A stretch of DNA of 56,863 nucleotides, the filler included, from Dugesia japonica (taxonomy: Eukaryota), in assembly GCA_001938525.1 (NCBI GenBank). It is 5 parts of 5 records of this genome, joined end to end, with 100 filler letters (N's around TTAATTAATTAA, not from the genome) between each part and the next. Parts side by side here need not be neighbours in the genome. Positions count along the whole stretch, not along the records: positions 1 to 8,968 come from MQRL01639079.1; 4 more parts are not named here. One strand, 5' to 3'. The notes under the pieces are model-generated. The model did no database searches. It was not told the origin of the DNA and saw only the letters and a program-made list of their open reading frames with translations. The position numbers and the translations under genes were made by a program. Below, one piece after another: positions 1,200 to 41,469 of the stretch. Numbering within the stretch: the first letter of the stretch is position 1; every line of letters starts with the position of its first letter.

Positions 1200-1580
1200 T
1201 TAAAATTTGGTTTTTATATTTCTGTTTATTTTATGAAATTTTAGATTTATCAAATTACTCATTCAATATTCGTTTACTACCTGGTGAGTTTCAAGCAGTT
1301 TGTTGAATTTTACTTTTCATAATGTATTTAATGTCAAATAAAATCTCTGTCCAACGTTTAAATTGATTTTCTCTCATTTTTATTGAAATTACATCTTCGA
1401 TGGTTCTAAATTGACGTTCAATAATATCCTTAGTCTTGTGATAATTCAGTCTAAAATACCACAGTTCTATTCCATATTTCTTTGCTAGTTCTAGCATTAA
1501 ATTTGACCCAAATAATTTACTCTGATCAAAATTTATAGTTTTTAAAGCATCAAATTTCCAAATCTATCCCAAACAAATAA
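1200..1580 (-). mobile_element. Gypsy-type integrase core remnant
   Basis: LELAKKYGIELWY..NYHKTKDIIERQFRTI..WTEIL matches the C-terminal half of the rve domain (ERxxRTI); disrupted. Confidence 0.65.
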
Positions 1581-1650
1581 TTCCCAAACAGATAAACAGC
1601 ATGGTCTGACTAAATCTGAATTTTGTAATATTAAAATNAAAATTATAAAT

Positions 1651-2043
1651 GGTTTTGATAAAAATTGGAACAAAAGATTAAGACCAGGTGATGTTATTAT
1701 TGTTGATGATCTGTATCAGGAGGCAAATAAAGAAAAAGATTTCAATAATTTATTCAAAAAGATATCGAGACATCGTAATGCTACTGTTATATTTATTACT
1801 CAAAATCTATTTCATCAAGGAGGTAGTCATAGAACCCGCAATTTAAACGTGTAATATTTGGTTCTATTTAAAAGTCCTAAAAATCAGACTGTTGTTGATT
1901 TTCTAGCAAGACAAGCATCTCCAAATAACAGACAATTTCTGATTGAATCATTTCAAGATGCAACAGAAAATCCTCACGGAAATCTATTTTGCGACTTTAC
2001 TTAAAAATGTCTAAATGACTATAGAGTGAGAACTGATTTTTAG
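1651..2043 (+). pseudogene. Polinton/Maverick packaging ATPase (A32/FtsK-like), C-terminal part, copy 1
   Basis: Manual translation: DVIIVDDLY (Walker B), ISRHRNATVIFITQNLFHQ, YLVLFKSP, FLARQ, FQDATENPHGNLF; internal stops. Confidence 0.9.
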
Positions 2044-2109
2044 TAAGAAACTCATATTTAGTCCAAATGGTATAACAGTGTAAAGAAAATAGGCAATTTT
2101 CTTAATATT

Positions 2110-2470
2110 ATATTCTCACAGTATAAAGCTGCACATGTAGAGAGATTTAATCTAACATTGAGAGATGCTTTGAAAAAGTACTTTGTAAATGTTGGTAATA
2201 AGACTTGGATAAAAGTTTTACCAAAACTTATTCATGGTTATAATAATTCGGGCCATAAGAGTTTAAATGGTGCCAGACCGGTTGATTTAAGTACAAACAA
2301 TCAATTAAAGTTATGGTTAGCGCGAAAACATCCAAAAGCAAAGAAAACCAAAATATAAAGTTGGTAACCATGTGAGAATCTCAAAAATATGAGCTTCACT
2401 ATTTATCAAGAATTTCAATAGTAATTAAAGTGAGGAAGTGTTTTAAATAACAAAAATTATTATACATAAC
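2110..2470 (+). pseudogene. Polinton/Maverick retroviral-like integrase, C-terminal part
   Basis: KAAHVERFNLTLRDALKKYF..WIKVLPKLIHGYNNSGHKSL..P, then after a frameshift KYKVGNHVRISK and SEEVF. Confidence 0.88.
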
Positions 2471-2559
2471 AGAATTAGAGCTATTAAATAAAAATTTAAC
2501 AAAAAACGGTTCCGAACTATTTAATACGATTTCTCTTTAAGCAAATAATCTATTTCAAT

Positions 2560-2948
2560 TCCATCTAAAGGATGATATAAAAACATTTACATTCGATAAC
2601 GTCTTGGCAAGAACATTCGGATTAAAAAATAACTTTATTCAGTTACAGATATGAAGGATGGTGAAATACAAGGTGATGTAAATCCAAAATTAATTAGATT
2701 ATATCATCAAATGTTCATCCATAGTACTAAATGTACTTCTGCTGAAATCAGTATGGATAGAAATAGCATGAAATTGATGAAGTAGTGCAAACAATAGCTG
2801 AAAATCTAAAGTATATACTTATTGCAACATCATGTATAAACAATATAGAAATTAATATACGTGATTATAACAAAAAATTAATCAAACTTTCAAAAGATTC
2901 GAAAACACATTTAACTTTACATTTTAGAAAACTAAGTAATGACTCCTG
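2560..2948 (+). pseudogene. Polinton minor capsid (penton/PX-like) remnant
   Basis: C-terminal NNIEINIRDYNKKLIKL..KTHLTLHFRK matches the IxIxIRD..TLHFR ending of Polinton minor capsid proteins; lies between integrase and major capsid. Confidence 0.7.
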
Positions 2949-3372
2949 ATATTTTTTCAATGTATTATACTAGTCAAGCAGGTGAAAGATCCCTTTACTT
3001 TCATCGAAAACAGTTGAATCTGGTTGGTTGCGAGCAATAGGTAAATTTTCTTTGCCTATTCTAAAACGTATTGATTTATTTGATATGAAAACAGCCCAAG
3101 ATATATTAGCTAATGAGGGAAAAATACTACCAACATTAAAATTCAATGCATTAGCAGAACTTCGAAATGTTATGTCCTTTTTAGCAAGTGGAGTAACCGG
3201 TGTGATTTCAAAAGTAGCAAACATATTACCCCAAAGTATAACTAATAAAATAACATCTGAAATAACTAACATACTATCAAATCAAGTCAAAACACAACAA
3301 CCCATAGAGAACAAAAATACCTCTCGCATTGCGTATAAACTAACAAATGAGAAGACATCGAACTATATTTGA
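2939..3372 (+). pseudogene. Small Polinton structural/core-like protein
   Basis: MTPDIFSMYYTSQAG, a frameshift, then GWLRAIGKFSLPILKR. The YYxxQAG plus amphipathic-helix pattern is typical of the small gene preceding the MCP in Mavericks. Confidence 0.55.
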
Positions 3373-3375
3373 AAA

Positions 3376-4578
3376 ATGATTTGCGGCATAACTGAATTAA
3401 GTATTTTTGATCGACCACCTCCACAAGCTGTAATTGAAGGTGGTAGTTTTGAAGATGTCTTTCCTATGGATTCAATTTCTGAATCACAAAACAATGCAGA
3501 GTTTTTATAAATGGATCTCAAACAAAATATTTAGATTTGAATGATACTTTATTGTATATTAAAGTGAAGGTAGTTGATAAAGATGGTAAAGATATGGCTG
3601 ACACTTATGATTCTGTTCCTATTAACTATATGTTGCATATACTTTTTAGGGTTGTAGTTCTTTCGTTTAATAATTTCAAAATTGATAGTGAAAATGGATA
3701 TTATCTTCACAAAGCATTAATTAAAACTGCAATAAATTATAATGGTAATAGTAAGAATATCTCCCTTGCAGCAATGTGATATGAATCAGAAGCAGATAAG
3801 AAGAAGTCTATTTAAATATCAAAACAATTATATCTATGCGGTTCATTGCAACTTGATTTCATGGATCTACCAAAATACCTTATTCCAGGTGACAATGTTC
3901 ATATTCGTTTGAAATGATCATCTTCTAAGATTTGTTTAGAATATGCAGCTAATAAACTTCAATATGTAATACTAGATGCAAAAGTAATGGTTAGACATGT
4001 GCGAGCTGAGCCCTCAGTACTAGCTGCTTATAAATTGGGTCTAAAAAAGCAAAATGCTATTTATCCAATAAGAACCATGGAAATCGTTGCATTTGCAATT
4101 AGTAAAAATAGTTCATCGTTTTATACAGAACAAATATTTGGTGATCGTTGATTACCCAGCTTTTTCTGGTTACATTTTAAAGCGAGAACAATATAATTGT
4201 AGTTATAAAACCTCGAGTTCAACATTTCAAAATTTAAATGCTGCTCTCTTTCTTTGACAAAAAACACTGATTATCGAGAAATATCTACTCAAGAATTTGC
4301 AAACAATAATTATACCACTACATATATGCAATCCATATTAAAATATATTGGATAAAATTATCAATTGTGGAATAACACTTACTGATTTTAAGGACAATTA
4401 TCCTTTGTTTACATTTGTTCTTGCTCCAGATTTTGATATAAATCAAAGTCAATTACCACAACAAGGAAATTTGATATTGGATATCAAGTTTCCCAAAGCT
4501 TTAACAGCATCCGCATATGTTATAATTAATGGATTATTTGAAAAAGAAATCCAGATTAAAGCCAACGGAACAGTATAA
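3376..4578 (+). pseudogene. Polinton major capsid protein (double jelly-roll, PY)
   Basis: TELSIFDRPPPQAVIEGG, YLDLNDTLLYIKVKV, PINYMLHILF, PKYLIPG, YPIRTMEI, YPLFTFVLAPD, GNLILDIKF; about 1.2 kb with stops and frameshifts. Confidence 0.9.
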
Positions 4579-4647
4579 GTGTAAACAATATAACGTATAA
4601 TCGATACATGTAATGAAGTAAGAGTTATTATATTAATTATTATTATT

Positions 4648-4915
4648 TTAATAGTTCTATTCAGATTGATCAAATTGCATCAAAGGGGCTTGGATCAGCG
4701 TGGCTAGATGTTTATGCGTTAGATAAACTTCCAAATTATATTCCAGTAGACAATGACTTAATTGTCATACTCATACATCAAATCTAGGTGGAGATCATTG
4801 GATAGCTGTTTACAATAAACCTGCAAAAATATTAGTATTTGACCCATTAGCATTTTATTATCCGTCCATGTTGGTGTCACACTTATCGAAATTATCAAAA
4901 CCAATTACAGCTATC
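4648..4915 (+). pseudogene. Adenain-like maturation protease remnant (Polinton PRO)
   Basis: DVYALDKLP, THTSNLGGDHWIAVY, ILVFDPL (catalytic His and Asp motifs); the catalytic Cys region is not recognisable. Confidence 0.8.
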
Positions 4916-5189
4916 CTCCCAGACACAAAATACAAAATTATATTTTTTTAAAATTTTCATCCAAATTTAATGATCCAAGTACTATTAAATAGATAATGTT
5001 TCGCTGATCAAGAATATATACAGTAGAAATTTTTCAAATGAAATTACTTTGAAAAAAGTTAAGAGTTTTTAATTCTCAATAATTAATTAAAAATAAAAGT
5101 ATCTTAAATACAATTATAGACCAGTCTATTTGATAGAAAATTTTATACTGATTACAAATATATTAAACTAAAATCACCATATATTATAA

Positions 5190-5474
5190 ATAAAAAGTTA
5201 TATTGATAAAACCAGTACTTTATGTAGGAATTCCACATTTTTCTCATTAATTCATTTTTCCTAGTTTTAACAATTGAAAGCAATGGCTTATTATGATGTT
5301 GTAAAATAAGCTTTTATCTTGGTTATGAATTACATTTCCTCAAACAATATTTACAATAATCTCTAATAAAGCGTGAATAACAAAATTTGAAAATGACTGT
5401 AACATTTTCATTGTTGACTCTTGTGTAGCCTTTAACAATAGTTTGAAATAAGGAAGACTTTGTTGAAATGCCAT
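5190..5474 (-). pseudogene. Conserved small Polinton protein (PW-type; nomenclature uncertain)
   Basis: MAFQQSLPYFKLLLKA..MLQSFSNFVIHALLEIIVNIV*GNV..STGFI resembles the LxLLxKA..ExxxNxxxGNV..GGF pattern. Confidence 0.6.
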
Positions 5475-5823
5475 AATATTTATTAACTAACATATGTTTA
5501 GATTGTTTATAGCTTGCGCCATATACCAGTGGATTGAATGTTTATATTTTCTTGCCTCTTTTGTTGCTTCTTTGGCTTTTTCTTATTTGTAATCTGTGAA
5601 TAACCCTTTAATGATAACTTTGATCGCTTACTTTTATTGATTTCTTTATAGATTTTTCATTGTACTCTTTACTGACTTCTTCTTTGCATTTTTTATAGAC
5701 TTGATATCATTTGGAACCGTATTGTCTTTATAACCAGTTTGATTGGTCATATAATTGTCGGTTTGAGGATTAACTAAATCTTCTGAAAATTTAGACATTT
5801 TGTAAGAAAAAATCAACTTCATT

Positions 5824-6418
5824 TTATTTTTTATACATTGTAACACCATTTGTAGTGAAAAAATCAGTTCAAACTTTAAGATCATTTGAGCATTGTTGTG
5901 TAAAATCTAGAAAAATGTAACCATGAGGTATTACTGTTGCATCTTTAAATAAATTTAATAGAAATGGTCGATTTTTTGGATACACTTGTCTTGCTAGAAA
6001 ATCAACAACAGTTCGATCTCTTGGATTTTTAAATATAACCAAATATTGAACATTTCAATTACAAGTTCTATGATCCCACCTTGATNNNNNNNNNNNNNNN
6101 NNNNNNNNNNNNNNNNNNNNNNNNNNNNNNNNNNNNNNNNNNNNNNNNNNNNNNNNNNNNNNNNNNNNNNNNNNNNNNNNNNNNNNNNNNNNNNNNNNNN
6201 NNNNNNNNNNNNNNNNNNNNNNNNNNNNNNNNNNNNNNNNNNNNNNNNNNNNNNNNNNNNNNNNNNNNNNNNNNNNNNNNNNNNNNNNNNNNNNNNNNNN
6301 NNNNNNNNNNNNNNNNNNNNNNNNNNNNNNNNNNNNNNNNNNNNNNNNNNNNNNNNNNNNNNNNNNNNNNNNNNNNNNNNNNNNCAATTTGATATACAGT
6401 ATCATTTCTTAATTCCAT
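5824..6418 (-). pseudogene. Polinton packaging ATPase, copy 2 (middle hidden in N gap)
   Basis: Start MELRNDTVYQI at 6418 just before the gap. After the gap: HRTCN*NVQYLVIFKNPRDRTVVDFLARQVYP..FKDATVIPHGYIFLDF. Total span of about 200 codons fits the family. Confidence 0.88.
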
Positions 6419-6461
6419 TATAATTTATGCTTGTTTAAACGTATCAGTTGAATTAATATTG

Positions 6462-6477
6462 TTTATACTGGTATAAA
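6462..6477. promoter_or_regulatory. Back-to-back TATA boxes, candidate bidirectional promoter
   Basis: Palindrome tttatac-tg-gtataaa gives TATAAA on both strands between the divergent ATPase start (6418) and TBP-like start (about 6503). The AT-rich background weakens this. Confidence 0.4.
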
Positions 6478-6502
6478 TACCCCTTTAAAAAGTTAATTAT
6501 TC

Positions 6503-6888
6503 ATAAAAAATTATTAAAAATATTAATTACAGAGGAAAAGTTGATCGAGAAGTGACTAGAAAAATAAGATTTCCACGTGGAAAACTACCTCAAGTTGTGG
6601 AGAAAATAGACAAGTATACCTTCATATTTTTCCAATGAAGAAGTTGTAGAATCTTGGGGTGCAAGAAACCAACAAGAAAAAAGGATTTAAAGTATAATAT
6701 CCAGAATATTCTATTACAATTACTTACATTTTTCCATAATTTGAGAACGGATTAATTTATATGAATTATCCAAACGAGTCAAATGTGTATATGAACCAGA
6801 AATATTCCCAGGATTAAGAATTCAAAATATTATCCAATATGTGTTCATTTATTTTCAAGTGGAAAGATTGTACTAGTTGGAATAAAAA
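6503..6888 (+). pseudogene. Intronless minimal TATA-binding-protein-like gene
   Basis: Repeat 1: IKNINYRGKVD..YTFIFFQ*RSCRILGCK. Repeat 2: IQNILLQ..RINLYELSKRVKCVYEPEIFPGLRI..PICVHLFSSGKIVLVGIK. One stop, two frameshifts, start codon degenerate, ends at a gap. Confidence 0.85.
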
Positions 6889-7003
6889 NNNNNNNNNNNN
6901 NNNNNNNNNNNNNNNNNNNNNNNNNNNNNNNNNNNNNNNNNNNNNNNNNNNNNNNNNNNNNNNNNNNNNNNNNNNNNNNNNNNNNNNNTAAACTTTTCAA
7001 AAA

Positions 7004-7630
7004 TGGATGATGTAATCTTGTCAGAAAAATAGAAGGAAATTTGAAAGAAATAGAACTATGTAACCAAGATGTTATCAAAGATGATGATGAATTTATGATA
7101 TTTTGAATGAAATGGCATGGAAGAACTATTATTCCAAAAATTATTTCAGAGACTAAAGATTATTTATCATTGAATTGTGAAGATTATCTCAACAAATGTA
7201 AAGTTGATGTTGCCGATAATCTGGCAAATTTATTCCAACTTGATGCATTTATCGATGCAATGAAGGAAATATCAAACAATGAAACTATTCCTTATCGTTA
7301 TAAATGAGAAAAAACAATACAAAGTGGTCTACAAGCTATTATTCAAATCTAATTCCTGGATAGTTTTGTAATACTCAGAAGACTAGAACTAATTGATAAA
7401 TTAAAATTTAATCCAGATTCATTGGAAAACATGACATTTTAATGGATAATTTAATTAAATTTCATAAACTCGATTTTTCAACGGTTGCAAATGAGTTTTA
7501 TGAGAACAAAAAAAGAAGCATTAATCAAAGAATACAATGATGATTTAAGTTATTCAAGTCTAGAATCAATACATCAAGCTCAAATGAATATAAAACTGAT
7601 GGCTTTAGCAATTACATTAAGTTAACAACA
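7004..7630 (+). pseudogene. Decayed orphan ORF, probably a Maverick accessory gene
   Basis: Long interrupted frame including MKWHGRTIIPKII..NLANLFQLDAFIDAM, co-oriented downstream of the TBP-like gene; no family recognised. Confidence 0.35.
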
Positions 7631-8198
7631 TGAATGCCACATGGAAAAAGATTCAAATACTTTGAGTAATCTTTGTTGCTTTAATAATCTATTTTAATAT
7701 TATAATTTCAGTTGCCAAATGTCATACAGAACATTCATTGGAACATCGAGTAATATGGGATTGAATTAAATAAACTTTACTTTTTTAAACTTGTCTTGAT
7801 TTATAAAAGTAATAAAAGTAACAAAGTAAAAATTAATAATATAAGTCGTTTAATTATACTAATATTTATTCATAAAATTTTATTCAATCTTGTGAGTTGA
7901 TTTAACTTTCCATATCGGTTTTACTATATCTTCAAATTTTTTTGTAACNNNNNNNNNNNNNNNNNNNNNNNNNNNNNNNNNNNNNNNNNNNNNNNNNNNN
8001 NNNNNNNNNNNNNNNNNNNNNNNNNNNNNNNNNNNNNNNNNNNNNNNNNNNNNNNNNNNNNNNNNNNNNNNNNNNNNNNNNNNNNNNNNNNNNNNNNNNN
8101 NNNNNNNNNNNNNNNNNNNNNNNNNNNNNNNNNNNNNNNNNNNNNNNNNNNNNNNNNNNNNNNNNNNNNNNNNNNNNNNNNNNNNNNNNNNNNNNNNN

Positions 8199-8967
8199 AA
8201 CTCTACTTTCTGAGAAAACTGAAAAAGAAGATAAAATCAAAATGAAAATAAATCTACACTCAGATGTTATAAACAATACTACTGTTCTTCCTTTCCAAAA
8301 TTTAACAGAATATACATTTACTGACAGTCAAATTTTATTATTAAATAAAGGACCAAGCTATATTCCTTCAAATTCAAGAGCATCAGTTTCCTCCAATATT
8401 CCAATGACTGAAGCTTCCATTTACAGTCTCAAATGCCAATTACACATAATAGAATACACAATATTTGAAAAATCAGATGAAATATCAGACAATTCGTCAA
8501 TTTTTTCATCGAAGTGGAAGTATTTGTCAATCATTTAGAAGGATGATACTAACATACAACTATCCTATTACATAAATTGATAACAATATTGAAGAACTCA
8601 GAAATAAACTTTTAGAAACTTACAAATATAACAAGAATATCAAATCTAAAAATAATGAAAATAAAATTATTAAAAAAATAAAGAGTTTGAAATCAATCAT
8701 CATAATTCCAACAGATAAAACAAATAAATTGGTAGCTTTACCTGAGCAAACATACAAGGATTTCTTCTCTGAACATCTGAATAATTATGAGACTATCATC
8801 CATAAAAGACTACGAATTACTGACAAGAATAAATTTAATAAAGAATTAATTAAAATTGCAGAAAAATATGAAGACCAAATAAAATCTTTATTTGTAGCAT
8901 TTAAATGTCATGAACCAGTTCCATCATCTATGTACTGTGTTCCTAAAGATCATAAAACAACAATGAA
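8199..8967 (+). mobile_element. Penelope-like element, N-terminal part of RT
   Basis: NLTEYTFTDSQILLLNKGPSYIP, IIIIPTDKTNKLVAL and PSSMYCVPKDHK correspond to the PLE NLS..LxKG, PADK and YGLPKxHK motifs. Confidence 0.85.
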
Positions 8968-8968
8968 A

Positions 8969-9068
8969 NNNNNNNNNNNNNNNNNNNNNNNNNNNNNNNN
9001 NNNNNNNNNNNNTTAATTAATTAANNNNNNNNNNNNNNNNNNNNNNNNNNNNNNNNNNNNNNNNNNNN
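8969..9068. other. Artificial contig spacer N44-TTAATTAATTAA-N44 (cores also at 23553-23564, 32410-32421, 41026-41037)
   Basis: Identical 100-nt linker with stops in all six frames, repeated four times. Confidence 0.95.
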
Positions 9069-11570
9069 GGATTTTAAACTATGATTAATTCCATAAATTA
9101 TTTCTTTTGGATTATTTAAAACTTTATCATATTCTTTCATTCTTATTTTATTAATTTTTGAAACTCCTTTGTCTTTAGTTTCTAAATTTTTGTTATAATC
9201 ACCTCCGGTTTGAGCTAAATCATTCTCAATTAAATAAAGTTTTGTTTTTATAAAATTACATTTAGTTATTTCTGAATTTTGATTCTCATCGTTTATTTGA
9301 AATAATTCATTACCAAGTAAACTTTCAAATTTAGTCAAATTTTCTTGTCCAATTATTTCTTCAAAAACAGAGTCAGTGTCTGAGAAATGAATTTTGTATT
9401 TATTTTGTATTTTATTTTCTAATTGATTATATATAAAGTCATAAATTACTTCTTTTGCATATTCCAAAATAGTAAAACCTATATATGGGAATTTATTATA
9501 TTTTAAATTAGTTTTTCTCATATGCATAGCAGCTGATTCAGCTTCTACAGTTTCTTTATAACTAAATATTTTGCTAGATCTAAAATTAATTTTTGAAGCA
9601 AAGGTTTGATAATCTTTATCAGTGTCAACTATTTCTACATTATATCTATTTCTTATGTTTTCTAAAGATGTACCATAAATGTAATCTACAAAGACATCAT
9701 TATTTCTTTATACTTCTCTTCTTAATTCTACAAGTTTGTGAACATAATCTTTAAACTATGGTGTTGTTCGCATTTTATATTTAGAATATTATTTTTTTAT
9801 TTTCATTCCTAAAGATTTGTATAAATCTAGTGTTGAACCAAGAATAATGTAATTTTCTTTATCAAATTGATTCAATGTTATTTTAATACTTTTCTTGCTC
9901 AAATTCCTGTTAAATGATAATTGAAAAGGAGCTAACATTACTTCAGTTATATTAATTCTATCTCGAGCTAGAGGAAAGCATTTTGTCTTTTCATGAATTT
10001 CTGGAGGATATTCTAAATCAACTTTATAAATATAATTTCTTTTAATTGTTGATTGAGTTTAAGTTAAGTCTTTAGATTCATAGATTTCACCTATTGGTAA
10101 AGGCTTAGTCATACAAGATGCATACAAAACTATTTTCATCTAGATATTTAATAAATGTATCGTCAAAATAATCAGGTGGAATTTCCTCATTTGAATTCAT
10201 CATTTTTATTTAATCATCAAATTGAGCTTTATTTATTTGTTTAGTATATGGATTTTTATTATTGTTTTGGTTAAATACTTTTCTCTCACCACATACACCT
10301 GAAAACACACTTCTAATTCCTTTTTCTATTTTTAAGAAAATATCATAAGTTTCTTTTTTTTGCAAATTTTAAATTTACATTTGCGCAATTCATACACGTA
10401 ATCCAACTATATCCTGAAGCCGAATATAAATAACATGGATCTAATTGAAGAATATTATTTTAAAATTTATCTCTAAAGTTTTCAATAAAATCTGCTAAAA
10501 TAATTATATCTAATTTCATGTTATGTAACATATATTCAAATAAATTAAAATTATTTCCACCTTCGGCTTGAGCTCCGCAAAAACCTTGTAAAAATTCACT
10601 ATTCTTGTTCATTTATCTTTTGTTGCTTTAATTTATTGAAAAAATTTCTTTTGTTTGAATATCATTTGATTTTAATAATTGAATTACTTCTTTTATATTT
10701 TTTTCTTTTACATATCCATAAGGAAATAATATTTTCTTTGGTTTTAAATTAAAAGATTTCAAATGATTATATTTTTTAGATTGATTTAATAATTTACTCA
10801 TTGTTTTGATCGATGCAAAATGACATAAGTTTGCTGAATCTAAAAATCTTATATTTTTATATTGAACTGAAATGTAAATTTCATCTGTATGAGGAATTAT
10901 TTTTTTAACTTTACTTGAAAGTTTTGCTAATAATTCTTTAAAAAAAATATTATCATATCCAGATCCATTGTGAAAGTAAAATGGAATAAATAAATACTTT
11001 AATGATTTATCTTGTAAATTGAATTTAGAATGAGTATAACCTCTAAATTCTCCATTAAAATGATACTGATCAATTACTGGATTTTCAGTTGAGATTATAT
11101 TTTTAACACCATATCTACATTTAGTTTCTTGTGTAAATTTTGGATGCTCAGTTTCAGTATAAAATTCAATTAATTTTTTTTCTTTTATATCTTTTAATTT
11201 ATTATTAATCTCTTCTAATAATTCAAAGAATTGTTCATAAAGGTTTTCTCCATAAAATTCTTTGTATTTAGTTTCCATTAAATGTGGATATTTACTCACT
11301 ACATAAATTCCAAGAGATCAATTGCATCTTCTCCAGGAAGTTGGTCAAATAATGATTTGTTAATCATTTCTTTGTTTCTTTGAATTTTAATGAGATTTTG
11401 CATAATCTTGCCTTGTAAATTTTAATTTACAAATTTTACAATACAAAGGCATTTATGTGGATTTCCACAAATTGCTGAATTCAAATGTTCTTATAATCCA
11501 ACTTCAGAACGAAATGATACAAAACATTTCGGACATCTAAATCTTCTTGAAGTTGGAATGATATGTTAAA
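9069..11570 (-). pseudogene. Protein-primed family B DNA polymerase (Polinton pPolB)
   Basis: CPKC..F..L..H..C finger, HFNGEFRG, FHNGSGYD, IRFLDS, FPYGY, YLDENS/LYASCM.KPLP.G, IYGTSLENIRNR, YIGFTILE, FSDTDS, KGV; frameshifted. Confidence 0.93.
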
Positions 11571-12169: not shown

Positions 12170-15100
12170 AATTGGTCTCTGAAAATCCAACCGATTCCAG
12201 AAAGAAAGCGGTAAACCATCTCCGATTTATGAATAAATATGACAACTCAGAGTATGAAGAATCCTTCTTCCGAGAATTTCAGGCAATTGAGAAAATTCTG
12301 TAGAATAAAAAACATGCTTCCTCGTAATAATGAAATATACAGATTTCTCTATCCAAAGATTAAAAAAGAAGATCATAAAATTGCATTGAATTCGGTTGCC
12401 TATTCTAATGTTGATCAATCTTCTACTCCGTTAACTTCTTACTTTAAATCAACTTGTCCGAAAAACAATGATGTTACTACAGAATTGAATAATACAGATT
12501 TGGACTTAATTAACTATCTGATTGCAAATTTTTCAATTACTGATACTGATACATTAATGACGTCTTAGACCTCACTGTCGGAAATTCTTACTCTTTCTTC
12601 TAAAAGGGTTTCTCAATCCTTAGCTTCTGAAATTTCTAAGCCATTATTTTTTGAGAATACCAAGGAAATATTTGAAAAAACGCTATAATAACTCGTAGTA
12701 AGGCTCAGAAACAAAATAACGCAAAAAATGAATCAGAAGAAACCTCTACTATTTATGATTACTCAGCAATGGTTAAATCGGATGCTGTTATTGATTTCAA
12801 GAGCAATTCTTGCAACAGCTCAATTGACTCAAAACAAATGCTTTACGGTTAGCGCCCACAGTTGCCCCCACAGTTGCCCCCACAATTGCTATGTCTTTGG
12901 CAACTGTGGTGAATCCTACACTCGATAAAACTTGGTTCAGTGCTGAACAAATTAATAATTTTATGGACGCTCACTTGAATGAATGTAGCTTTGTGCATAT
13001 TGATCCTTGTATTACACAGGTTGTTATTGCGAAGAGTGAAACCTATATTTCACTTGGCTGTGATATCGATAAACTTTCTGTTGCCTCAATTATTATTTCG
13101 GTTGTTAATCTCGCTAACCAACATTGGAACCTCTATGTGTTTGATAGATTCAAAAACATTGCGTAAAACATAGATCCATTAAAAAAACTTACAGACCTGA
13201 TCTTGTTATTGAATATGGTTTACATATAACTGCTAGTTTGAATATGGCCATAAATGACACTGTTGTGTTTATTGACAAAAATGAAATTGATAGACAGTTT
13301 CAACAAAACAGCTTTTGTTTGCAGTTATGCTACTAATTTCTGTGCAGAAAACCTTTTTTCGATCTCAATGTCTACATGGTAAGGAACTTTGTTCGCAAGG
13401 AAAAAGTAAATATTGGTCAAAGTTTTAATGATGGTGGTTGTGGTCCAATTGTTTCTTCCAAATTAGACTCAATTATTTCGATTATTGAAATCAATCAATA
13501 CAACATTTTAGGTTTTGCTTATAGTTTTATTCAAAATAGTGGTTGCTTTGTTGTTGATTCAACTCTGTCTAGTGTTAATGTAGATGACGACTAGGTTTCT
13601 GAAGTAGTTTCATTTTAAATGTTTCAAGTCTCACAATATAATTTTCTGCCATTTCCTGGCTTCTGATTTAAGATTGGTGCTGTTTGTTTTCGATCTTGAT
13701 GGCAAGATATCAAATCTTCTTGATCCTAAAGCCAACAATGGCGAAGTCGTTGATAACGAAGTTTCTAGTAGACTACATGTTTTCTTTTTCAGAATTTTGC
13801 AGAAGGAAAGATATCGTTTTGACTAAACCTCTTTTCAATTTAAGCACCTTTCAAAGAAACAACAATGAAAGTGGGCTCGTTGCTTATGGCTACATTTACT
13901 CTATTGCTCATATGAATAGATTTGATAAAGTGGATATTAGCAGCCTTAAATTAAAGTATTCTAATTTCATCAATAATAATTCTAATAGGAATATTAATAA
14001 AATTGGTTACAAACAAAATAAAGTTAACCTCATTAAAAAGAACATGAATAAATTTAATGAAATTCTTAAATTTGTCAAAAACAATGAAGGCAATATACCA
14101 AGGAATTCATTTTATAGCTTTATTCATTCTTTTCATAAAATTAAACAGAAAATTCTGAATTTTAATATTGGAGAACGTAAATGTAACCATCGCCCAGAGA
14201 TAGACCTTAACTTAAGTAATATTTTATACTATTCGAAAAAAGCAGTTTTTGAGTTAATTTAAAGTGGGGCTTCAGCTGACTGTCATCCGTCTAAGGAAGA
14301 TCTTGAAGCATACTTTATATTTAAAGTCGAGGCTGGACCATTGACTAATTGGAATTTATGTCCTACTTTGAAAACTGGAAGTGATAGTTTGAATTTTTTT
14401 GTCCTGAAATCAATGTAATCAAAGACATTTTTTCAGTATTTCTGTTTTGTCTTCTAGTATTAACAACATTACATGCCAGGATCATGAATCTGTTGATCCA
14501 AACTTACAAATAATTCAGTCTTTTTAACAAAATTATTGCTTCCGGTATTACTCCAGATAGTTGGAAAGTGTATTTGACTTTGATATCCAAGCCTGACAAA
14601 AATGATTCGTACCACTTTGTCTCGTTTTGGAGACCTATAGCCATGCTTGACTGTTTTTACAAGCTTTTAATGGCCTGTTTTGCATCTCAACCCTTGAAAT
14701 GGCCTCAGAATTTGAAATTTTTAGATGGTCTGCATAAAGGTGCTGGTTAATCAGATGGCTGTTCTTAGCGCAATTTATTGCTTTGATGTCTGCTAGATTA
14801 GCAAAATAGATATGTCACGTTTAACTTGCATATCGCCTTTTTGGACAAAGCTGATGCCTTCGATAGCATAACAATCAAGCGAATTCTTGGTTTGTTGACC
14901 CAGATGGGTGTCACTGAAAAGGCTACTAGTTTAATCAGAGCTCCCTATTCTGACTGCTTCAGCTATTTCATCTGCAATCAGGTTTCTACTAATCTTATTG
15001 TTAACAGAATTGGTGTTAGACCAGGCTGTTCTCTATCTATGTTGTTATTTAACATTAGCATTAATCCTATCATTACTGAGATTTCTAAAACTGAAGGTGA

Positions 15101-16900
15101 TGGTGTTAAATGTGCTGGTCATCCCATATTTTGTTTGGCATATGCAAATGATCTAGTACTTGTAGACTCTTCTAAGGCTAGCCTTCATTATATGGCCAAC
15201 GTCGCTGTTAAATTTGCAAATTGGTTACATTTTGATTTTCCGCCAAGCAAGTGCACTTATTTACCTTGTCTAATAAATTGCAAGCTTGCTCAAATTGCCA
15301 TTATTGGTTATCCCAAATCTGTTGAATAAAGTCTTTTATCGCTATCGTGGGGTCGATTTTAATCGTGAATACTTTCAAACACCAACGGAAATGTTTGATA
15401 AAGCAGCTAGGGATCTTGAGAAAACTTCAAATTCAGTTATATATCCTTAGCAGAAAATCCATGCGTATCGAATCTTTATTCATTCTAAGTTCTCGATCGC
15501 GTTCAATAACTTTAACATTCCGTTAGGAAAGTTTGATTGCAGTGAGTATAATGAAAATTAGATTCTTCTTCGTCCACGAGGTTTCGATAAAAGCATTCAA
15601 TCTAGCACTCAACAGATTTTATCTGTTCCAAATACTGCTACTTCTGACAATTTATTTAGTACCCGCAAACTTGGAGAAGTTGGGCTAACTTCTGCGAGAG
15701 ACGAATATTCTGTAAAATTTCTAGTTCAGACGTTCAAAATGTTTGCTTGCCCTGATAAAATTATACGGAATGTGGCTAACAACAATCTTGTCCATGTTGC
15801 GACTAAGCATCTCAAGCGTTTTAAATTGTGTTCCATAGATGAAGCACTTGATTGGCTCTCCATAGATACCACCAACTAAAATCTCATGTGTTAGTGGTCT
15901 AAGGTCGATGATGCAGTTGCTCATTTTTATAGATCGTATTAAATACAAATTAAGTTCAAACGGAACGAACTTGACATTTGTTAGCAGATAATAGATTGCA
16001 TTACAGAAGAAAATTATTTTATTTTCTTCAAGGACCGGAGAAGTCTGGACAAATTGCTACTTATTCTTTTGAGTTTGGTTCACATGAGAAAGTGGAGCAG
16101 TCTGTTGAAGGCAGGAAGGTAGTCAACTGCAATCAGTGCCTTACCTCTCTCAACTAAGCCACTATCAATATAGAAATCTGAAGGTTCATTCATAAGGCAA
16201 TAACAAGCACCATTCTTATAGGGAGCAATTATGGTATGCCTTTAAATGCTCTTTTCATCTCGAAACTCAAGCATATGATTTCTGTCATTGTGGTTCTTCT
16301 TCTTCATTTTGAATTCATCAAGACACAATGACGTGCTTGAGCTAATTACCAGCTTTGTTAGATCCAACACTAGCTCTAAGGTCATTATTGATTAGAATTG
16401 TGAATTTGTCAACAGAACTGATAGAATAGATCTTTAGATGATAAATTGCGAGACTTTGCGTATTATCCTTTTAGATGTGAAGATTCCCCATGACACTTCC
16501 AATAATATTAAACTAGCCAGAGATTAATAATAATAATAATAGTAATATCGTCAAATACACATCACAAAGGTAAATATCCTGGAAAATTTGTCTGAATATA
16601 AAGTTTTCCTTAAGACAATCGCAGTGTGATGTCTAGGATCTTGGTGTTCAGAAAATAAAAACCTGTTTTAAATCAGATAGGTTTTAAGGCTAGTGTGATT
16701 AAGAAATTTGCGTTGATATCGATTAAAAAAATGCATTGTCTGATCGTGTAAAAATTTTCGCTTCCATAACGGACAAGCTGGTGCTATAGACAATTCTGCT
16801 AAAAAAATGTGGAATTGCTTATGGCAGTGAGTCTGAAATGGTAGAATTGAAATAGGGTCCTAAATTTTGCGTGTTTTCTGATCTTTCTTTGTTTTCTATT
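12170..16900 (+). mobile_element. NeSL/R2-group non-LTR retrotransposon (Ulp1-like protease, RT, restriction-like endonuclease), near full length, decayed
   Basis: Protease: WFSAEQINNFM..NQHWNLYVFD..QQNS. RT: WRPIAML, AFLDKADAFDSI, GVRPGCSLSMLLFN, LAYANDL. Also P*QK, RHNDVL, RIDL..LDVKIP, KY, CLGSW. Confidence 0.9.
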
Positions 16901-21239: not shown

Positions 21240-22995
21240 TAAAATAACTATCTGATTTTGAAAACTGACATCTAATTTGGAATTTTCATGAATGGTGAAA
21301 CTCTCAAATTTTTGCATTGACTTGGAGACAGAAACCGAATTTGTTGTGCTTGAAGACGACTGTAAGATCACAGTGTTCAGCAAGATGTTTAATACTGTTT
21401 CTGAATTTTGTACACCATGATTTGATACCATTCTCTCGGTCTCCTTTATTCAGCCAATCCATCATCGCAGCATAATTTGAAGTGAAATCCATTTTAAGGT
21501 CTTCTTGAACGGCTTTAGACAAGCTTCATAAGTTGATACCAGTAACAATAGGATCACTACAAGTAAAGGTACTGAATTTATGAACAATAGCTTGAATAGC
21601 GTATTCGTCTCTATCTGATGTTAGATCAAGTCCACCAATATCTGAAGGAGAATATAAGTACGCTGTGGAAGCGTTGAGTGGAAGACCGCAAATCTTTTTC
21701 ATCCTTTTACTGACTTCAAAATCGAGACCTTTGCTAAAGATTGTGTTCTTGACTTCATGATGGCCATAATCTGAGAGTTCACGATTCGGAATGTTAAAGT
21801 TTCGAAAGGCAAAAGTGAATTTTCAATCTTTTGCCAAGGAAATAGAATTTAATCTATTAATTTGTCAAAGTCAGCAATTGCTTCCTTAAAGAGCTTTTCC
21901 GGTGAGTTTTTGAAACCTTTGCTAATATCGTTACCTAAATATCTATACTTATCCATATAAGTTATGTTTGGGATAGCTGATTTGTTGATGAGAATGACCT
22001 CTGATCGATCAAATGTGGCCATGTGTCCGCATTTAGAAACATTGAAGGACATACCACCCCAATTGGTCCAAACGTTCGCAGTGTTGACCATAGCTTGAAG
22101 ATCTGCAAGATTTTCGGCAATCAAGGTAATGTCATCAGCATAAGTCAAACATTCAACTCTATAGTTACGTATACGGGCTCCAGCATTACGAACAAGAGCG
22201 GATTCTGTGAGAACAGAATTGAGACCGATACTAAAGAGAAGCGTAGATAGTGGGCAACCTTGACGGACTCCTCGCTTTATTACAATAGGTGAAGTGATAA
22301 TATTAGCGCAGATAAAGAAAGATGAGCAATCACCATAGAATTTTTCGATTAGATTGGATGAAGATGTTTCCATACCCATGAGTCTAAGAATACTCGTAAT
22401 ATGACGAATAGGAATGCTTCTAAAGGCATCAGAGATGTCTAAGTAGGCCATATGAAGAAGCTTCTTTCATCCATATTCTTCGAGCATACACCTGAGGATA
22501 TAATTGTGTTCAGTACAACCTTCAGATCTTCCAGTGCCTTTTTGCAGAGGGAACGATAGATTATTAACATCAATCCAATTCTCAATCTGTTTAGCCAAGC
22601 ACGCAGTAAAGAGTTTATAGGTACACTCAAGTAAAGCAATTGGCCTCCAAGAATCAATTTTGTNATAATGTCCTTCTTTATCANGTTTAGAAATTAGCAG
22701 AGTGGAGTAAGATTTCCATCTCTTAGGAATAATTCTTGTTTTGATGATTCTGTTAAAGACACAATAATTCTGCTTGGGGATCGCAATATTTAATGTCTCT
22801 ATAAGCAACATTACTGATACATGGGCTACTGTTTGGCATAGAGTTGAGAATTTGGATAAGATCGCATTGGTCGATTTCTTCAAAGTTTAAACTTGGACCA
22901 AGGCGAATTCCAGGATTATTATTTCAATCAGTATCTGGTGGATCAAAAGATTTTAATCCAAAAAAATTTTGAATAATATCTTTAGTTGGAGAGGT
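21240..22995 (-). mobile_element. Second R2/NeSL-group non-LTR retrotransposon, RT region, truncated at both ends
   Basis: WRPIALLECTYKLF, QKG..EGCTEHN, YLDISDAF, RGVRQGCPLS, YADD, FNVSKC, YRYLG, PWQK, YLYSPSDIGGL. Confidence 0.92.
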
Positions 22996-23899
22996 ACTGA
23001 CCTTAGGGTATCTCTATTTCAATATACTTTCCTAATAATTATGAACATTCTTTCTATAAATGCGAAATGTTCATTAAAAAATAATAACAAACTTACTAAC
23101 ATAAAATTTTTTTAAATTAATTTTTTTAGAATTTTTATGCATGACTATATAAATAAACATTTTTAATTTATAAATTTATAAAAATTTAATTAATAAATAT
23201 TTTATCTTTTTGTTAATTTTATTAAAAACATATTTACAAATATAAATAGAAAAATAAAATATTCTATACCCTCCTTTATTTTAAAAATAAAAAATTTAAC
23301 TTTTAGCTACTTACTATTCTAAGTAGAATATTTTCTAACTTTGTAAAATATCAAAAATAATAATATTTTCTAAAAATCAAAAAATTTCAAAAATAATTAT
23401 ATTTTCTAAAAATCAGAAAATTTAAAAATTTTTATTTATAATTACAATTATTGTGAGAATAATTGTTGGACTTAACCATTGATCGGATTTGAGACTTCAT
23501 TAAAATAANNNNNNNNNNNNNNNNNNNNNNNNNNNNNNNNNNNNNNNNNNNNTTAATTAATTAANNNNNNNNNNNNNNNNNNNNNNNNNNNNNNNNNNNN
23601 NNNNNNNNACGAATATAATTTATATAATAACGATATTAAGGTCATATAAGGAATTCATATAAGTTTATTATAATTTGGATTGACCCACTTTCGTCAATAA
23701 ACTAATAACTCACGCAACTGCTGATTTGCTTTGGCAACAATCCCCAAAGCATCTCAACATATTCGAATAATTCGGTAAACTATTCAAAAATACGAGCAAA
23801 AATTATGTAATACACATAAATTTACTCGTCCATTAAAAAACCGATAATTCGGTTAACTTTTCATAAAATACGAGAAACAATTACGTAATGCACACAAAT

Positions 23900-27964: not shown

Positions 27965-28330
27965 CATTTAATTTCAAAAGGATAGGATTCTTAGATTCAT
28001 ATAAAATGTGTTCTAGACATTCTGTTGAACATATGCGTAATGACACCAATAACTGATGAAGAATACAAAATCTTTCTTGGTGAATATAAATGTGTCTCAG
28101 GCTCTAAAGAATTTCGTAATCTCTATGAATATACATAATATTACATAAAGCTTGATGTTTTAATTCTAACTGACGTTTATGAAAACTTTAGAAAAATATC
28201 AATACAAGATACTGAAATTGATCAAATATATTCATATTCAGCTTCACGTTTAACTTGGGCAAATTGAACAAAAGCATGTGGAATAGAATTAATATTTCCT
28301 AGTTATGATAATTATGATTTGTTTTTTTTA
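27965..28330 (+). pseudogene. Second pPolB fragment (exonuclease III region)
   Basis: GFLDSYKM; FRNLYEYT*YYIKLDVLILTDVYENFRK..EIDQIYSYSASRLTWA. Confidence 0.8.
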
Positions 28331-28768: not shown

Positions 28769-31222
28769 CATGTACTGAAACTAAAAAAGTTTACTTAATA
28801 AAAATTACATCATCAGTTCATATAAAACTGCGAAGTTTGAAAAATTGAAAGAAAAATAAAAACATGTGATTGACGACCTGATGTGTTTGTGCACTGCCAA
28901 ATTTTACCAATCTTATTTTAAATAATTTAAAATATCATATACCAATCAATACATTGAGGATATATTTTGCAGGTATAAAGTAATTATAGGACACCGTATA
29001 AAGTATTCTGTTTCATTCTTATATTTGAAAATAATTATTTTATTTTATATTTTCTTTCTTGTTTTTTTTAATCCATTGCCTTGGATTTTCTTATCTAATG
29101 TATACTCATTAATTTATTTGTTACATTAGTTATACAACATAATAATAATTAGTTTTTAATTCTATAATTGAAATATTTCTTATTACTTTTTCTACAAAAA
29201 TTAAATAGTTCATTTCAAAAAGTATTGTCATTCGTATATAAATGAAAATTTATAATTTTAACATTATTTATTACCTAATTCAATAATTTTGAAGTATTCT
29301 AGAAGTATATCTATTGCACAATTGTTTACGAAATTGATAAAAAAATTATGTGCTTTATTAATTTGATAAATTCTAAAATATTCTTAAAAATTTAAAATAT
29401 AAATTTTCAAAATTATAAATTTAAAAGTTCAAATATCTTTATGATAATTCTGGTTGAAAGATTGTAATTAACCTCTGCACGCTTCATTAGGTTTGTTCTA
29501 TAGTGCCAAACTTCCATGAATATTCGAGACAACTCTGAAATTAGCAAACATTAATACAAAAAGTCATTAATAAAAATAGAACAATAATAATAATAATAAT
29601 ANNNNNNNNNNNNNNNNNNNNNNNNNNNNNNNNNNNNNNNNNNNNNNNNNNNNNNNNNNNNNNNNNNNNNNNNNNNNNNNNNNNNNNNNNNNNNNNNNNN
29701 NNNNNNNNNNNNNNNNNNNNNNNNNNNNNNNNNNNNNNNNNNNNNNNNNNNNNNNNNNNNNNNNNNNNNNNNNNNNNNNNNNNNNNNNNNNNNNNNNNNN
29801 NNNNNNNNNNNNNNNNNNNNNNNNNNNNNNNNNNNNNNNNNNNNNNNNNNNNNNNNNNNNNNNNNNNNNNNNNNNNNNNNNNNNNNNNNNNNNNNNNNNN
29901 NNNNNNNNNNNNNNNNNNNNNNNNNNNNNNNNNTTACTTGTATGCTTACCTAAAATTGCTTTAAAATACAGTGTTGAATAATTGAATTAATATTATGAGA
30001 TTATTATTTATAAATGTTATATTTTTAGGAAGTACTCAATTATTCTCTGTGAAAGTACATTATTTAGGTAAGTGTAATTGATATATTAAAACTGGCTTAT
30101 ATATTATTGATTATTTATTTTTTCTACCTTTATCACTGATTGTAAAAAAAAATTAGAAAATATGGTTAAATAAGTTTAAATAGTGGAAAATAAACGAAAA
30201 TGTACAAAAATTAGATAAATTAAACATTTAAGTATTACTTGTTTATCACTATATTGTTTGAAGTAATAAAATATGAATAAATTATAATGAGTGGTACATA
30301 CTTATAACAATTGTTTTATAAATTGCATCTGATATATCGGTTTTATATTCAATAATAAAGCCTATATTTTCATGTTTAAACCATTATTTGCTTTGGTGAA
30401 CCTAGACTGTTACATACTGATCATGTTTCAATTGCAAAATAATTATTTTAATGTTACATAATAATTATGTATGTTTTAATTGTTAAATCTTTTTGTTTTG
30501 TTATTTAAATTTAGTGAAACTTTTTTTTGTTTATATTAAATAACATTAGTGATTTTTTGTTTACATAAAATGGATTTATTCATTTTATCTTTGGATAGGC
30601 ATAATTAGTGATTATTAAAAGTAAATTTGCTCGGGATATGTTACCATTACCCGTCGTGAGCAATATTAAAATTAAAATAAAAATTTCAAACTTCTTTAAT
30701 TATTTGAAATATAAAATTCACTGTAAAACTGGTTCGGAAGTAAAGGTCACCAACTTTTATCAGAGTAACAGAGATGGAGATTCATCCTCGTCTTAAGATT
30801 TTCAAAAGTCTATCTATATGTGCAGTTAAACAAGTGCAGTTAATTAGTGCAATGAAAATAAATTAACTTTAAAGCATATATGACGGTTGTACAAACATTA
30901 AGACAGGAGACGCTGCTGGACTCAACAGATGTATATATCAAATAAAATATTTAAATAGAAAATAAATAGAGAATTAATAGAACAGAAAACAATTAAGCTT
31001 CACTCAGATTATTTTACTCGACTAACCATAATAAATTTATGTCAGAAAAAAGAGTGATAAAATCAAATCATTTAATCATTTCGCTAGTAAGTACAATGCA
31101 ATAAATATCTGAATTTGAAAATCTACAAAGACATAATTTTAATATATGATGAATATCATACACCTTCAAATTATGAAAAACAACAGGTAGATTAAAGCTT
31201 ATTTTCCTACTTATATTGCATT

Positions 31223-31353
31223 AGTAGTGTATAAATGACGGCTTCCTGTCAAGGTTGTACCCTTCCTTCACATACATATATGATCTGGGATAAAATAATA
31301 TATTTTAAATATAAAAAAAACACATTCCAGGAAGCCGTCATTTATACACTACT
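31223..31353. mobile_element. 131-bp fold-back element with AGTAG...CTACT ends
   Basis: Perfect 26-bp TIR agtagtgtataaatgacggcttcctg / caggaagccgtcatttatacactact. Confidence 0.75.
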
Positions 31354-32465
31354 TAGGTTGATGGTTGAAATTTTTTAAAAATATAAAATAAAAATTAAAA
31401 TAAAAATGTCAAACTACTTTGATTATTTGAAACATAATGAAGAATTTAAGAGAGCAGTAAGAGAATTTATATATGATGAAGATGATGAAAAATTAAAGAT
31501 AACTAACGTAACTTTAATTAATAATTTGAAAAAAGAACTAGAAATTTAAAATGGGAGCTAAACCATATAAAAAATAAAAATAAAATCTTGAAAGAAAAAT
31601 TAGAAGAAATAAAAAAATGTAATTTTTTATTAATATTTTACTAATCGTAATCGAATAGTAATCGAAAAGTAATCGAATAGTAAATGTATTGTAACATTTT
31701 TTATTAATAAAATGGTTAGTGATGAAAGAAGACAAAGTGACTTTTATAAACTCCTAAAAAGTTATAATTTTTTTGAAAAACCATATTTCTAAGTTTTGTT
31801 AACAAAATAATGTAAATTAAAAAACAGTAACAAAATATTTAGGAGAATTTAATATTTCTTATAATCGAAAAAACATCCCAAAGGGACCAATTCAATTTCC
31901 AGAAAAAGATGTTAGCTCTAAAACCAAAATTTATTGAACATCCAGGTTTAAAACTAACATTGATAAAATGGGAAGAAGATGATGATTTAATTATTTTAAA
32001 TGAAGATTGTATTAATATTACTAAAGAAATAAAAGCAAATAGTGATGATTTATGTGAAAGATTAACAAGATTAAAAGTCCAAGAAGAATATGAAGGAGAT
32101 ATAAAAAGAGTTTATGCAGCTAAAAGCGATTGACCTAATTATGTAGTAAAAACCTCTAAATCCAATAACCCCCTGCAAAAACCTACAACCTCCCAAAAAA
32201 CACCCCACGATAATTTATATGACTGTTCTGTGAAGCCACTACCCTTCTAGCGAAAACCATCCATCCCACACTATAAGTCCTTTAAAAATCGTAGACTGAA
32301 TTTTAATGTATAAAAACTCCAATAAAATTATTTCCAAGATCTCCAGCTCCTCATCTAGTCCAAAANNNNNNNNNNNNNNNNNNNNNNNNNNNNNNNNNNN
32401 NNNNNNNNNTTAATTAATTAANNNNNNNNNNNNNNNNNNNNNNNNNNNNNNNNNNNNNNNNNNNN

Positions 32466-37600: not shown

Positions 37601-38001
37601 GCCATTACTTTCCAAATTACCTAATATATTTGGAAAAAATGTAATAAAGGCAAAACCATTCTAATTAAAATAAGAATTTTAGTTTTTATCATTTATTATA
37701 TTTTAAAGTAATAATTTTTGAAATTAGAACAATAATTTCAAAAATGAATCTATTTTTGTAATATCTTTTTGAAATATATCGTTCATAACTATTGAGAAAA
37801 CACCAATTTTAATGAAGATATTATTCTTAAAAACTATTTGTTTATATATTTAAAATTATTTATATAAAATTGCGCAATTTATGTAGTTATATTTAGCCTA
37901 TATAATTTTACATTTGACTTTTATTATGTAGTAATAAATGTAAAAAATTAATTTTTGAAATTTTTTAGATCTTTGTGCTGTGATATATTTTACATTTTAA
38001 A

Positions 38002-39265: not shown

Positions 39266-39299
39266 GTATGGTTTAATATATATTTCTCTATTTTAAATT

Positions 39300-40900: not shown

Positions 40901-41469
40901 ATAAATACTTTATGGAATCAAAAACTCTTTTAAATTCAACGATGGCCATCTTAAACTCATCTAACCATTTTAATTATAAATNNNNNNNNNNNNNNNNNNN
41001 NNNNNNNNNNNNNNNNNNNNNNNNNTTAATTAATTAANNNNNNNNNNNNNNNNNNNNNNNNNNNNNNNNNNNNNNNNNNNNTTCATTAAAATAAAGGAAA
41101 AGCTTCGATCAAAATAAAATGTATTTGTAAAGAAATTCAAATCTTGACAATAGATATTTGCTACAAAATTCTTAATCTTTTATCGAGATTAAATTGGTCT
41201 ATTTAAATTAAAAAAATTTTTTTTAAAATTAAATCTCAAAAAATCTTTTTTTTAATTAAATTTAATTGAAAATCTCTTAAATGTTTTTAAAAAATAAATT
41301 AATGTATTAAAGTATTAAAATATTTAGATATGTATTTTATTAATATTAAAATTTACAATATTAAAACCTTTATTTTTTTATTAATTTTTTTGTTAAAATT
41401 TTTTAATTATTTTTATTATTAAGAATCTTTGAAAAATGTTTATTTATTGAAAACTTTTAATTACTGTAA

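Follow-up and report, generated by a model that had tools for sequence, protein, structure and literature searches.

Does a Polinton/Maverick element encode its own TATA-binding protein (TBP), and if so, what would the element use it for? A decayed locus in the Dugesia japonica assembly GCA_001938525.1 raises this question. The window, by which we mean the whole 56,863-nt stretch of joined DNA that was analysed, had been read as carrying an intronless two-repeat TBP-fold gene that starts about 85 bp from a divergent frame (MELRNDTVYQI), itself read across a gap as a Polinton packaging ATPase. All of the TBP and ATPase peptides quoted in that original prediction are present in the window sequence. 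A dead copy of a clade-wide TBP-fold gene lies in the window, and from comparison of sequences we propose that the intact protein is probably a promoter-recognition factor for late genes. The features at the center of the locus are as follows.

6507 to 6888, plus strand: decayed TBP-like gene of a Polinton; some 127 of roughly 150 codons can be seen, the 3' end falling in a gap
6472 to 6479, plus strand: canonical TATA box TATAAATA, facing the TBP-like gene about 35 nt 5' of its frame, putative promoter element
6461 to 6466, minus strand: ATAAAC, facing the ATPase gene 48 nt 5' of its ATG, putative promoter element
6386 to 6418, minus strand: packaging ATPase N terminus (MELRNDTVYQI), matched to intact ATPase starts
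5824 to 6085, minus strand: packaging ATPase C-terminal part, residues about 127 to 208, two stops
5307 to 5474, minus strand: remnant of F4, a small conserved gene found 3' of the ATPase gene in relatives, with ATAAAC at 5510
6989 to 7700, plus strand: decayed open reading frame (ORF) that follows the TBP-like gene and, as does the remainder of the element, occurs in repeated copies

The TBP-like frame runs along the plus strand from 6507 to 6888, where it is cut by a 100-N gap (6889 to 6988) that contains the C-terminal helix. We see no intact start codon; the peptide is spread over three frames by one in-frame stop (6636 to 6638) and frame changes at about 6747 to 6750 and about 6820 to 6835. 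This copy is dead and cannot work. Six-frame Pfam scans of the decayed region were empty (0 of 42 at E = 0.01); intact relatives served to identify the genes instead. With the first two breaks bridged by X, the window TBP matched Pfam TBP (PF00352) weakly (E = 7.4e-4); its 19.8 bits fall short of the curated cut-off, 22.9 bits, whereas an intact relative, the 153-aa protein P0003, gave a strong match above it (E = 5.8e-12, 45.7 bits). The window copy is 75% identical to P0003 over 106 aa and matches a cellular TBP along 44 residues only. Members of the family are 145 to 180 aa long with a TBP fold, and the whole protein has about 150 aa instead of the 130 codons first estimated. Fold, residues, and selection were analyzed in intact natural relatives.

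The MELRNDTVYQI ATG lies at 6418 on the minus strand, 88 to 91 nt from the first TBP-like codons, in agreement with the predicted spacing and divergent orientation. Within this 88-bp spacer, the TATA box and ATAAAC stand back to back; copies of ATAAAC are also found 5' of F4 and of the capsid gene in the window. Comparison with intact Polinton ATPase N termini supported the assignment of MELRNDTVYQI as the ATPase start, 7 of its 11 residues being identical to those of locus L046. The ATPase picks up again at 6072 (residue 127), and the gap-bearing stretch, in which the gap itself is unread, measures 313 nt versus the 345 nt needed by an intact 209-aa ATPase, a fit within about 30 nt. The two genes are similarly decayed, as had been claimed, with two stops in 82 visible codons of the ATPase and one stop plus two frame changes in TBP. 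Their head-to-head layout is the minority arrangement (2 of 25 related loci); TBP followed by ATPase in tandem occurs in 22 of 25.

Profiles built from related loci were used to place the genes in the surroundings; they set F4 3' of the ATPase at 5474 to 5327 (minus strand) and yielded the following additional Polinton pieces.

1597 to 2050, plus strand: second ATPase copy, 5' truncated, in a facing Polinton fragment
2065 to 2471, plus strand: integrase fragment of the facing element
2672 to 3189, plus strand: minor-capsid (penton-like) fragment and small gene F21
3376 to 4579, plus strand: decayed major capsid (MCP) gene, with ATAAAC at 3335
4670 to 4898, plus strand: adenovirus-type protease fragment
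9347 to 11266, minus strand: protein-primed DNA polymerase B (pPolB) fragments, beyond an unsized join from the TBP-bearing copy

The labels given to 2672 to 3189 are in part presumptive, and F21 sits 5' of the capsid gene in relatives; the MCP label is likewise presumed, from gene order and Polinton anatomy. Remnants of the Polinton ATPase, integrase, capsid, and protease genes occupy 1597 to 6418, split between two facing fragments whose ATPase copies are 76% identical in DNA and which represent either two decayed elements or one rearranged element. For this fragmentary copy, we found no pair of terminal inverted repeats that has either arm within the first 13 kb of the window. The second ATPase (1597 to 2065) passes almost straight into mid-integrase with F4 missing, which suggests an internal deletion, and also lacks its 5' part. 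A stop-riddled frame at 1200 to 1500 (minus strand; no Pfam match) adjoins it and looks by eye like a retroelement-type integrase. Additional small pPolB fragments occur at 28109 to 28295 and 31082 to 31223. An artificial linker, TTAATTAATTAA, lies between two 44-N runs at 9013 to 9024, 23553 to 23564, 32410 to 32421, and 41026 to 41037; these are unsized joins, and order across them is thus no evidence of linkage.

Intact relatives place the TBP gene within Polintons. A search with P0003 returned 43 proteins among 71 candidates and, at E = 0.001, 596 cluster representatives that included cellular TBPs. In metagenomes, 154 of 396 pattern matches encode a relative, and the best 80 of these 154 served as the locus set. 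A core gene (ATPase, integrase, capsid, pPolB, protease, or F21) was found in 35 of these best 80 loci and an ATPase in 25; the remaining 45, often short contigs, showed no core gene in the stretch examined and are unplaced. Seven of the best 80, together with L081, carry pPolB and TBP on one contig, and intact sets of ATPase, integrase, capsid, and protease are present in L003, L038, L048, L052, L053, L059, and L081. When four loci were chosen by ATPase alone, two (L081 and L082) also contained TBP. Related loci hold pPolB, rve integrase, A32-like ATPase, adenain protease, capsids, and PLA2, which matches the Polinton/adintovirus gene set of Starrett et al. 2021 (PMC8502044). The TBP-bearing elements form two groups, only one of which has PLA2, and identity between their capsids falls to 26 to 28%. 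We conclude that a TBP-fold gene is carried by a broad Polinton/Maverick clade. Far from being absent from other Mavericks, the gene occurs in many other Polinton loci; that TBP is element encoded stands, while its capture by "this lineage" does not, the association being far older than that, as capsids only 26 to 28% identical attest.

In IMG/VR, neither P0003 and the L083 capsid nor the alignments of TBP, ATPase, and capsid brought up a relative; the integrase scan alone did. The Polinton contigs L081 to L084 lie inside bacterial metagenome-assembled genomes, most likely through binning contamination. Several other genes keep company with TBP in these elements. F12 (L024:1296-1865), F18 (L045:1283-1930), and F3 (L020:2756-3082) adjoin it and have no Pfam match; F12 and F18 often have a canonical TATA box and acidic tails and by eye resemble single-strand DNA-binding proteins. 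F2 (L038:5870-6352 and L081:10736-11212), often beside TBP and with a relative in the TBP-less loci L086 to L088, has a DxE motif, which suggests a DEDD exonuclease. A leucine-rich-repeat protein with a hydrophobic N terminus (L024:1918-3327) is found inside TBP-bearing Polintons in 5 of the best 80 of 154 loci.

The AlphaFold2 (AF2) model of P0003 (pLDDT, 93) is a predicted two-repeat TBP saddle: its top Foldseek matches in the PDB are TBPs, and alignment with yeast TBP residues 66 to 240 by VIA-align gave a Z score of 12.2 and an rmsd of 2.9 over 148 residues. We mapped 100 family members onto a ciliate TBP in yeast numbering, with DNA-contact positions taken from Table 1 of PMC12529657. N69, F116, Q158, E186, E188, F190, P191, and F207 are kept in 96 to 100 of the 100, with F116, F190, F207, and E188 in all and E186 in 99. 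The acidic stirrup of repeat 2 (YEPE) is present across the family by the same counts, and three of the four intercalating Phe residues of TBP are invariant, while the F99 column holds P in 98 of 100; the repeat 1 alignment there is uncertain by one residue, with no Phe either way. These data agree with the original prediction that repeat 2 retains the YEPE stirrup and both of its Phe positions and that repeat 1 lacks its first Phe. In TBP, the acidic repeat 2 stirrup binds TFIIB.

Other positions on the DNA-contacting face have changed. V122 is replaced by R, T124 by M, N159 by S or T, and L205 by N in 100 of 100 members each, V71 by N in 93, A101 by Q, and V161 by T or S; together with F99, all eight replaced positions are changed in 86 to 100 of 100. 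Family proteins are on average about 41% identical, and new concave-face residues that are nearly invariant against that background suggest a ligand that is conserved but altered. The spacer at helix H2 has 19 residues in P0003 versus 32 in ciliate TBP; it measures 14 to 22 residues in 51 of 74 ORFs measured and 25 to 31 in the other 23. The window's subgroup has the short form, and elements with PLA2 have one of nearly full length. The family thus resembles cellular and archaeal TBPs (PF00352) in its two-repeat saddle (Z score of about 12; 22 to 26% identity) and in keeping the YEPE stirrup, F116, F190, F207, N69, and Q158, but differs from cellular TBP in being about 25 residues shorter, in the loss of F99, and in the replacement of six concave-face positions.

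Sequence divergence indicates that the intact TBP copies are under purifying selection. Among 25 independent pairs, the 12 closest (dS < 0.95) gave dN/dS values of 0.12 to 0.26 and the 13 more distant ones values of 0.13 to 1.0; the median over all 254 pairs was 0.50, which we attribute to saturation of distant pairs. TBP and ATPase distances were correlated across 18 loci (Mantel, 0.81; none of 2,000 permutations as high).

We compared the 100 nt upstream of genes after removing near-duplicates, with expectations from dinucleotide shuffles. ATAAAC, whose usual form is YATAAACR, lies mostly 31 to 52 nt 5' of the ATPase ATG. It was spotted by eye in the same set used for the counts, fresh cases being L081, L082, and the window only. 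ATAAAC precedes the ATPase gene in 23 of 23 cases (2.0 expected, 0 antisense; 24 of 25 genes usable), MCP in 9 of 9, F4 in 14 of 16, penton in 9 of 11, PLA2 in 10 of 13, integrase in 11 of 15, F2 in 16 of 21, protease in 3 of 4, and F21 in 4 of 5. The TBP gene itself has it in 4 of 51 (3.2 expected; 61 of 81 usable), F12 in 1 of 8, and F9 in 0 of 7. Canonical TATA shows up before TBP (25 of 51; 5.6 expected), F12 (6 of 8), and F9 (4 of 7); the strict form is missing before the remaining 26 of 51 TBP genes. Near stop codons, ATAAAC goes with the kind of gene that comes next: it is there in 68 of 96 cases when that gene is late and in 3 of 62 when it is TBP or another early gene. A role for the word as a polyadenylation or 3'-end signal was rejected, with the preceding base being A in only 5 of 86 sites and the word following the class of the next gene.

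Loci lacking TBP provided a comparison. Of the four ATPase-picked loci, L081 and L082 have both TBP and the motif, and both are missing from the stretch examined in L083 and L084. Where there was no TBP match, ATAAAC preceded the ATPase gene in 1 of 15 loci, these being partial contigs of mostly distant lineages with 8 of the 15 close kin and L105 prokaryotic. Twenty-one integrase-picked loci had no TBP-profile match, and the word stood before 10 of their 180 ORFs and before 1 of the 13 ATPase genes; Pfam TBP was absent from the 112 control ORFs scanned (of 141 listed). These controls favor a link between gene and motif, and co-occurrence by ancestry alone may also account for them.

Taken with the residue data, these patterns most likely reflect a two-stage program, whose genes we label "early" or "late" according to what they encode. 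Host TBP would read the canonical TATA before the TBP gene and a few neighbors (early genes). The element's TBP would then bind ATAAAC in the minor groove and kink it by means of its three Phe residues and re-tuned polar face. Through its invariant acidic stirrup, it would recruit host TFIIB, and so RNA polymerase II, to the genes for ATPase, capsid, protease, and integrase. The TBP-TFIIB contact forms on DNA, and the H2 surface of TBP contacts TFIIA, TAF1, Mot1, and Brf1; loss of repeat 1 helix H2 in the window's subgroup would cut contacts with host regulators. We lean toward the broader proposal that a clade of animal-type Polintons spanning capsids 26 to 28% identical runs this program with a one-domain vTBP of switched specificity that reads ATAAAC and recruits host TFIIB. 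If so, no known vTBP system would be smaller, and nature would have provided a testable example of a TBP reprogrammed to a new DNA word. The control of virion genes in integrated Polintons bears on whether they have a true-virus life cycle, and a promoter factor of their own, together with the word that it reads, would supply a mechanism as well as a marker for classifying elements and locating gene starts.

An alternative is that host TBP or TRF reads ATAAAC while the element's TBP represses early TATA promoters, its own included, or binds the origin or termini. ATAAAC does resemble TATA: 55 of its 86 sites have a T just before it, and TATAAAC is one base off a TATA box. The TBP gene itself stands behind a canonical TATA, and the gene-motif controls are confounded by ancestry. 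We nonetheless regard this explanation as unlikely, because one class of genes is distinguished by C at position 6 followed by A or G (84 of 86 sites) and another by canonical TATA, because word and TBP gene go together in the four ATPase-picked loci, and because an invariant TFIIB-binding stirrup suits an activator.

Of the two functions originally proposed, promoter recognition is favored by the ATAAAC motif together with the altered DNA-contacting face, and the case for a TFIIB decoy weakens. As a decoy, the protein would sequester TFIIB or TBP-binding regulators and shut down host transcription with no sequence-specific DNA binding, for which the invariant acidic stirrup and the loss of F99, plus that of helix H2 in the window's subgroup, could be cited. 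This seems improbable: a decoy needs neither invariant new concave-face residues nor three retained Phe residues, and it leaves the ATAAAC motif unexplained.

The origin of the sequence was evaluated by its repetition and by phylogeny. Across three DNA runs of one organism, 2,854 to 6,297 contigs fell on positions 5200 to 7948, most of them less than 95% alike. Summed contig depth, which is a signal of repetition and not a copy number, reached thousands to hundreds of thousands over the TBP gene, spacer, and ATPase versus 25 to 155 over 5568 to 5751. The TBP-bearing sequence is a highly repeated family and no single retrocopy. TRF/TLF proteins are paralogues of TBP. A quick tree of 69 rows included 8 eukaryotic TBPs (the named ones ciliate), 14 labeled by us as archaeal type, and six others, and was built without animal TBP/TRF and named viral TBPs; we accordingly claim no donor. 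In it, Polinton-context TBPs and five unplaced short proteins formed one branch (SH-aLRT, 98) apart from cellular TBPs, so that the predicted alternative of clustering with host TBP/TRF was not seen with respect to ciliate and archaeal TBPs. A processed pseudogene of host TBP/TRF lying by chance beside a Polinton is largely refuted and exceedingly improbable, for although the sequence is intronless and decayed and animal TBP/TRF lie outside the tree, it is 75% identical to a Polinton-type protein versus a 44-residue match to a cellular TBP, its family branches apart from ciliate and archaeal TBPs in the quick tree, and thousands of variant contigs cover the stretch.

One RNA run placed 958 reads on 5200 to 7948, of which 745 were less than 90% alike and 1 was at least 99% alike. 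Strand bias in this run was equal over TBP and the oppositely oriented ATPase, making it uninformative on the window copy and on timing. Among the listed holders of the sequence, none is on record as RNA. The ORF at 6989 to 7700, which has no match in Pfam or to locus families, had the clearest strand bias in this run, roughly 10 to 1 and probably sense, which comes from related copies.

Both the TBP fold and virus-encoded TBPs are known already. Viral TBP-fold proteins of nucleocytoviruses and other large DNA viruses were the best BFVD matches (E down to 3e-7), at 9 to 18% identity. Nucleocytoviruses mostly bring their own RNA polymerase; no RNA polymerase gene was seen in the TBP-bearing Polinton loci. 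Beta- and gammaherpesviruses have a vTBP family that includes EBV BcRF1 and HCMV UL87. The KSHV member, ORF24, combines a TBP fold, retained Phe residues, a polar DNA face, a TATT late word, and host RNA polymerase II, according to PMC12529657. The Polinton system shares with it the pattern of a viral TBP fold and a noncanonical word before virion genes, and the herpesvirus protein turns some of the same positions polar (PMC12529657, Table 1). The two differ in that ORF24, as described there, has 752 aa, extra domains, and all four Phe residues, whereas the Polinton protein stands alone at about 150 aa, with the stirrup kept and F99 lost. The herpesvirus protein also has extra Pol II-binding domains and works in a six-protein viral complex, and no such partners were found among the Polinton neighbors scanned; function is shown for ORF24 in that source and inferred for the Polinton TBP. 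By analogy, the Polinton TBP likely works as the herpesvirus vTBP-TATT system does, without belonging to it. As a minimal TBP whose DNA specificity has changed, it would parallel the herpesvirus solution and be useful for learning how TBP reads DNA.

In the passages of PMC8502044 examined, a TBP-like gene appears only as a label in the legend of Fig. 5, with no family, motif, or mechanism; passages of its preprint carry the same label. One supplement of the paper (about 4 million characters) contains neither "TBP" nor "TATA." We found no account of a Polinton TBP family or an ATAAAC motif in the literature searched, which lay outside subscription papers, Repbase, and bioRxiv supplements.

The rest of the window is gapped, AT-rich (most 2-kb bins, 20 to 34% G+C), and rich in retroelement debris. 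A 430-codon stop-free frame at 37984 to 39273 (plus strand) has no Pfam match. Frames at 8200 to 8968 (plus strand), also with no Pfam match, close the contig and, judging by a motif, have the look of an ORF from a Penelope-type retroelement. Other retroelements have left remnants of reverse transcriptase, RNase H, and integrase at 14802 to 15326, 21852 to 22886, and 49203 to 50910.
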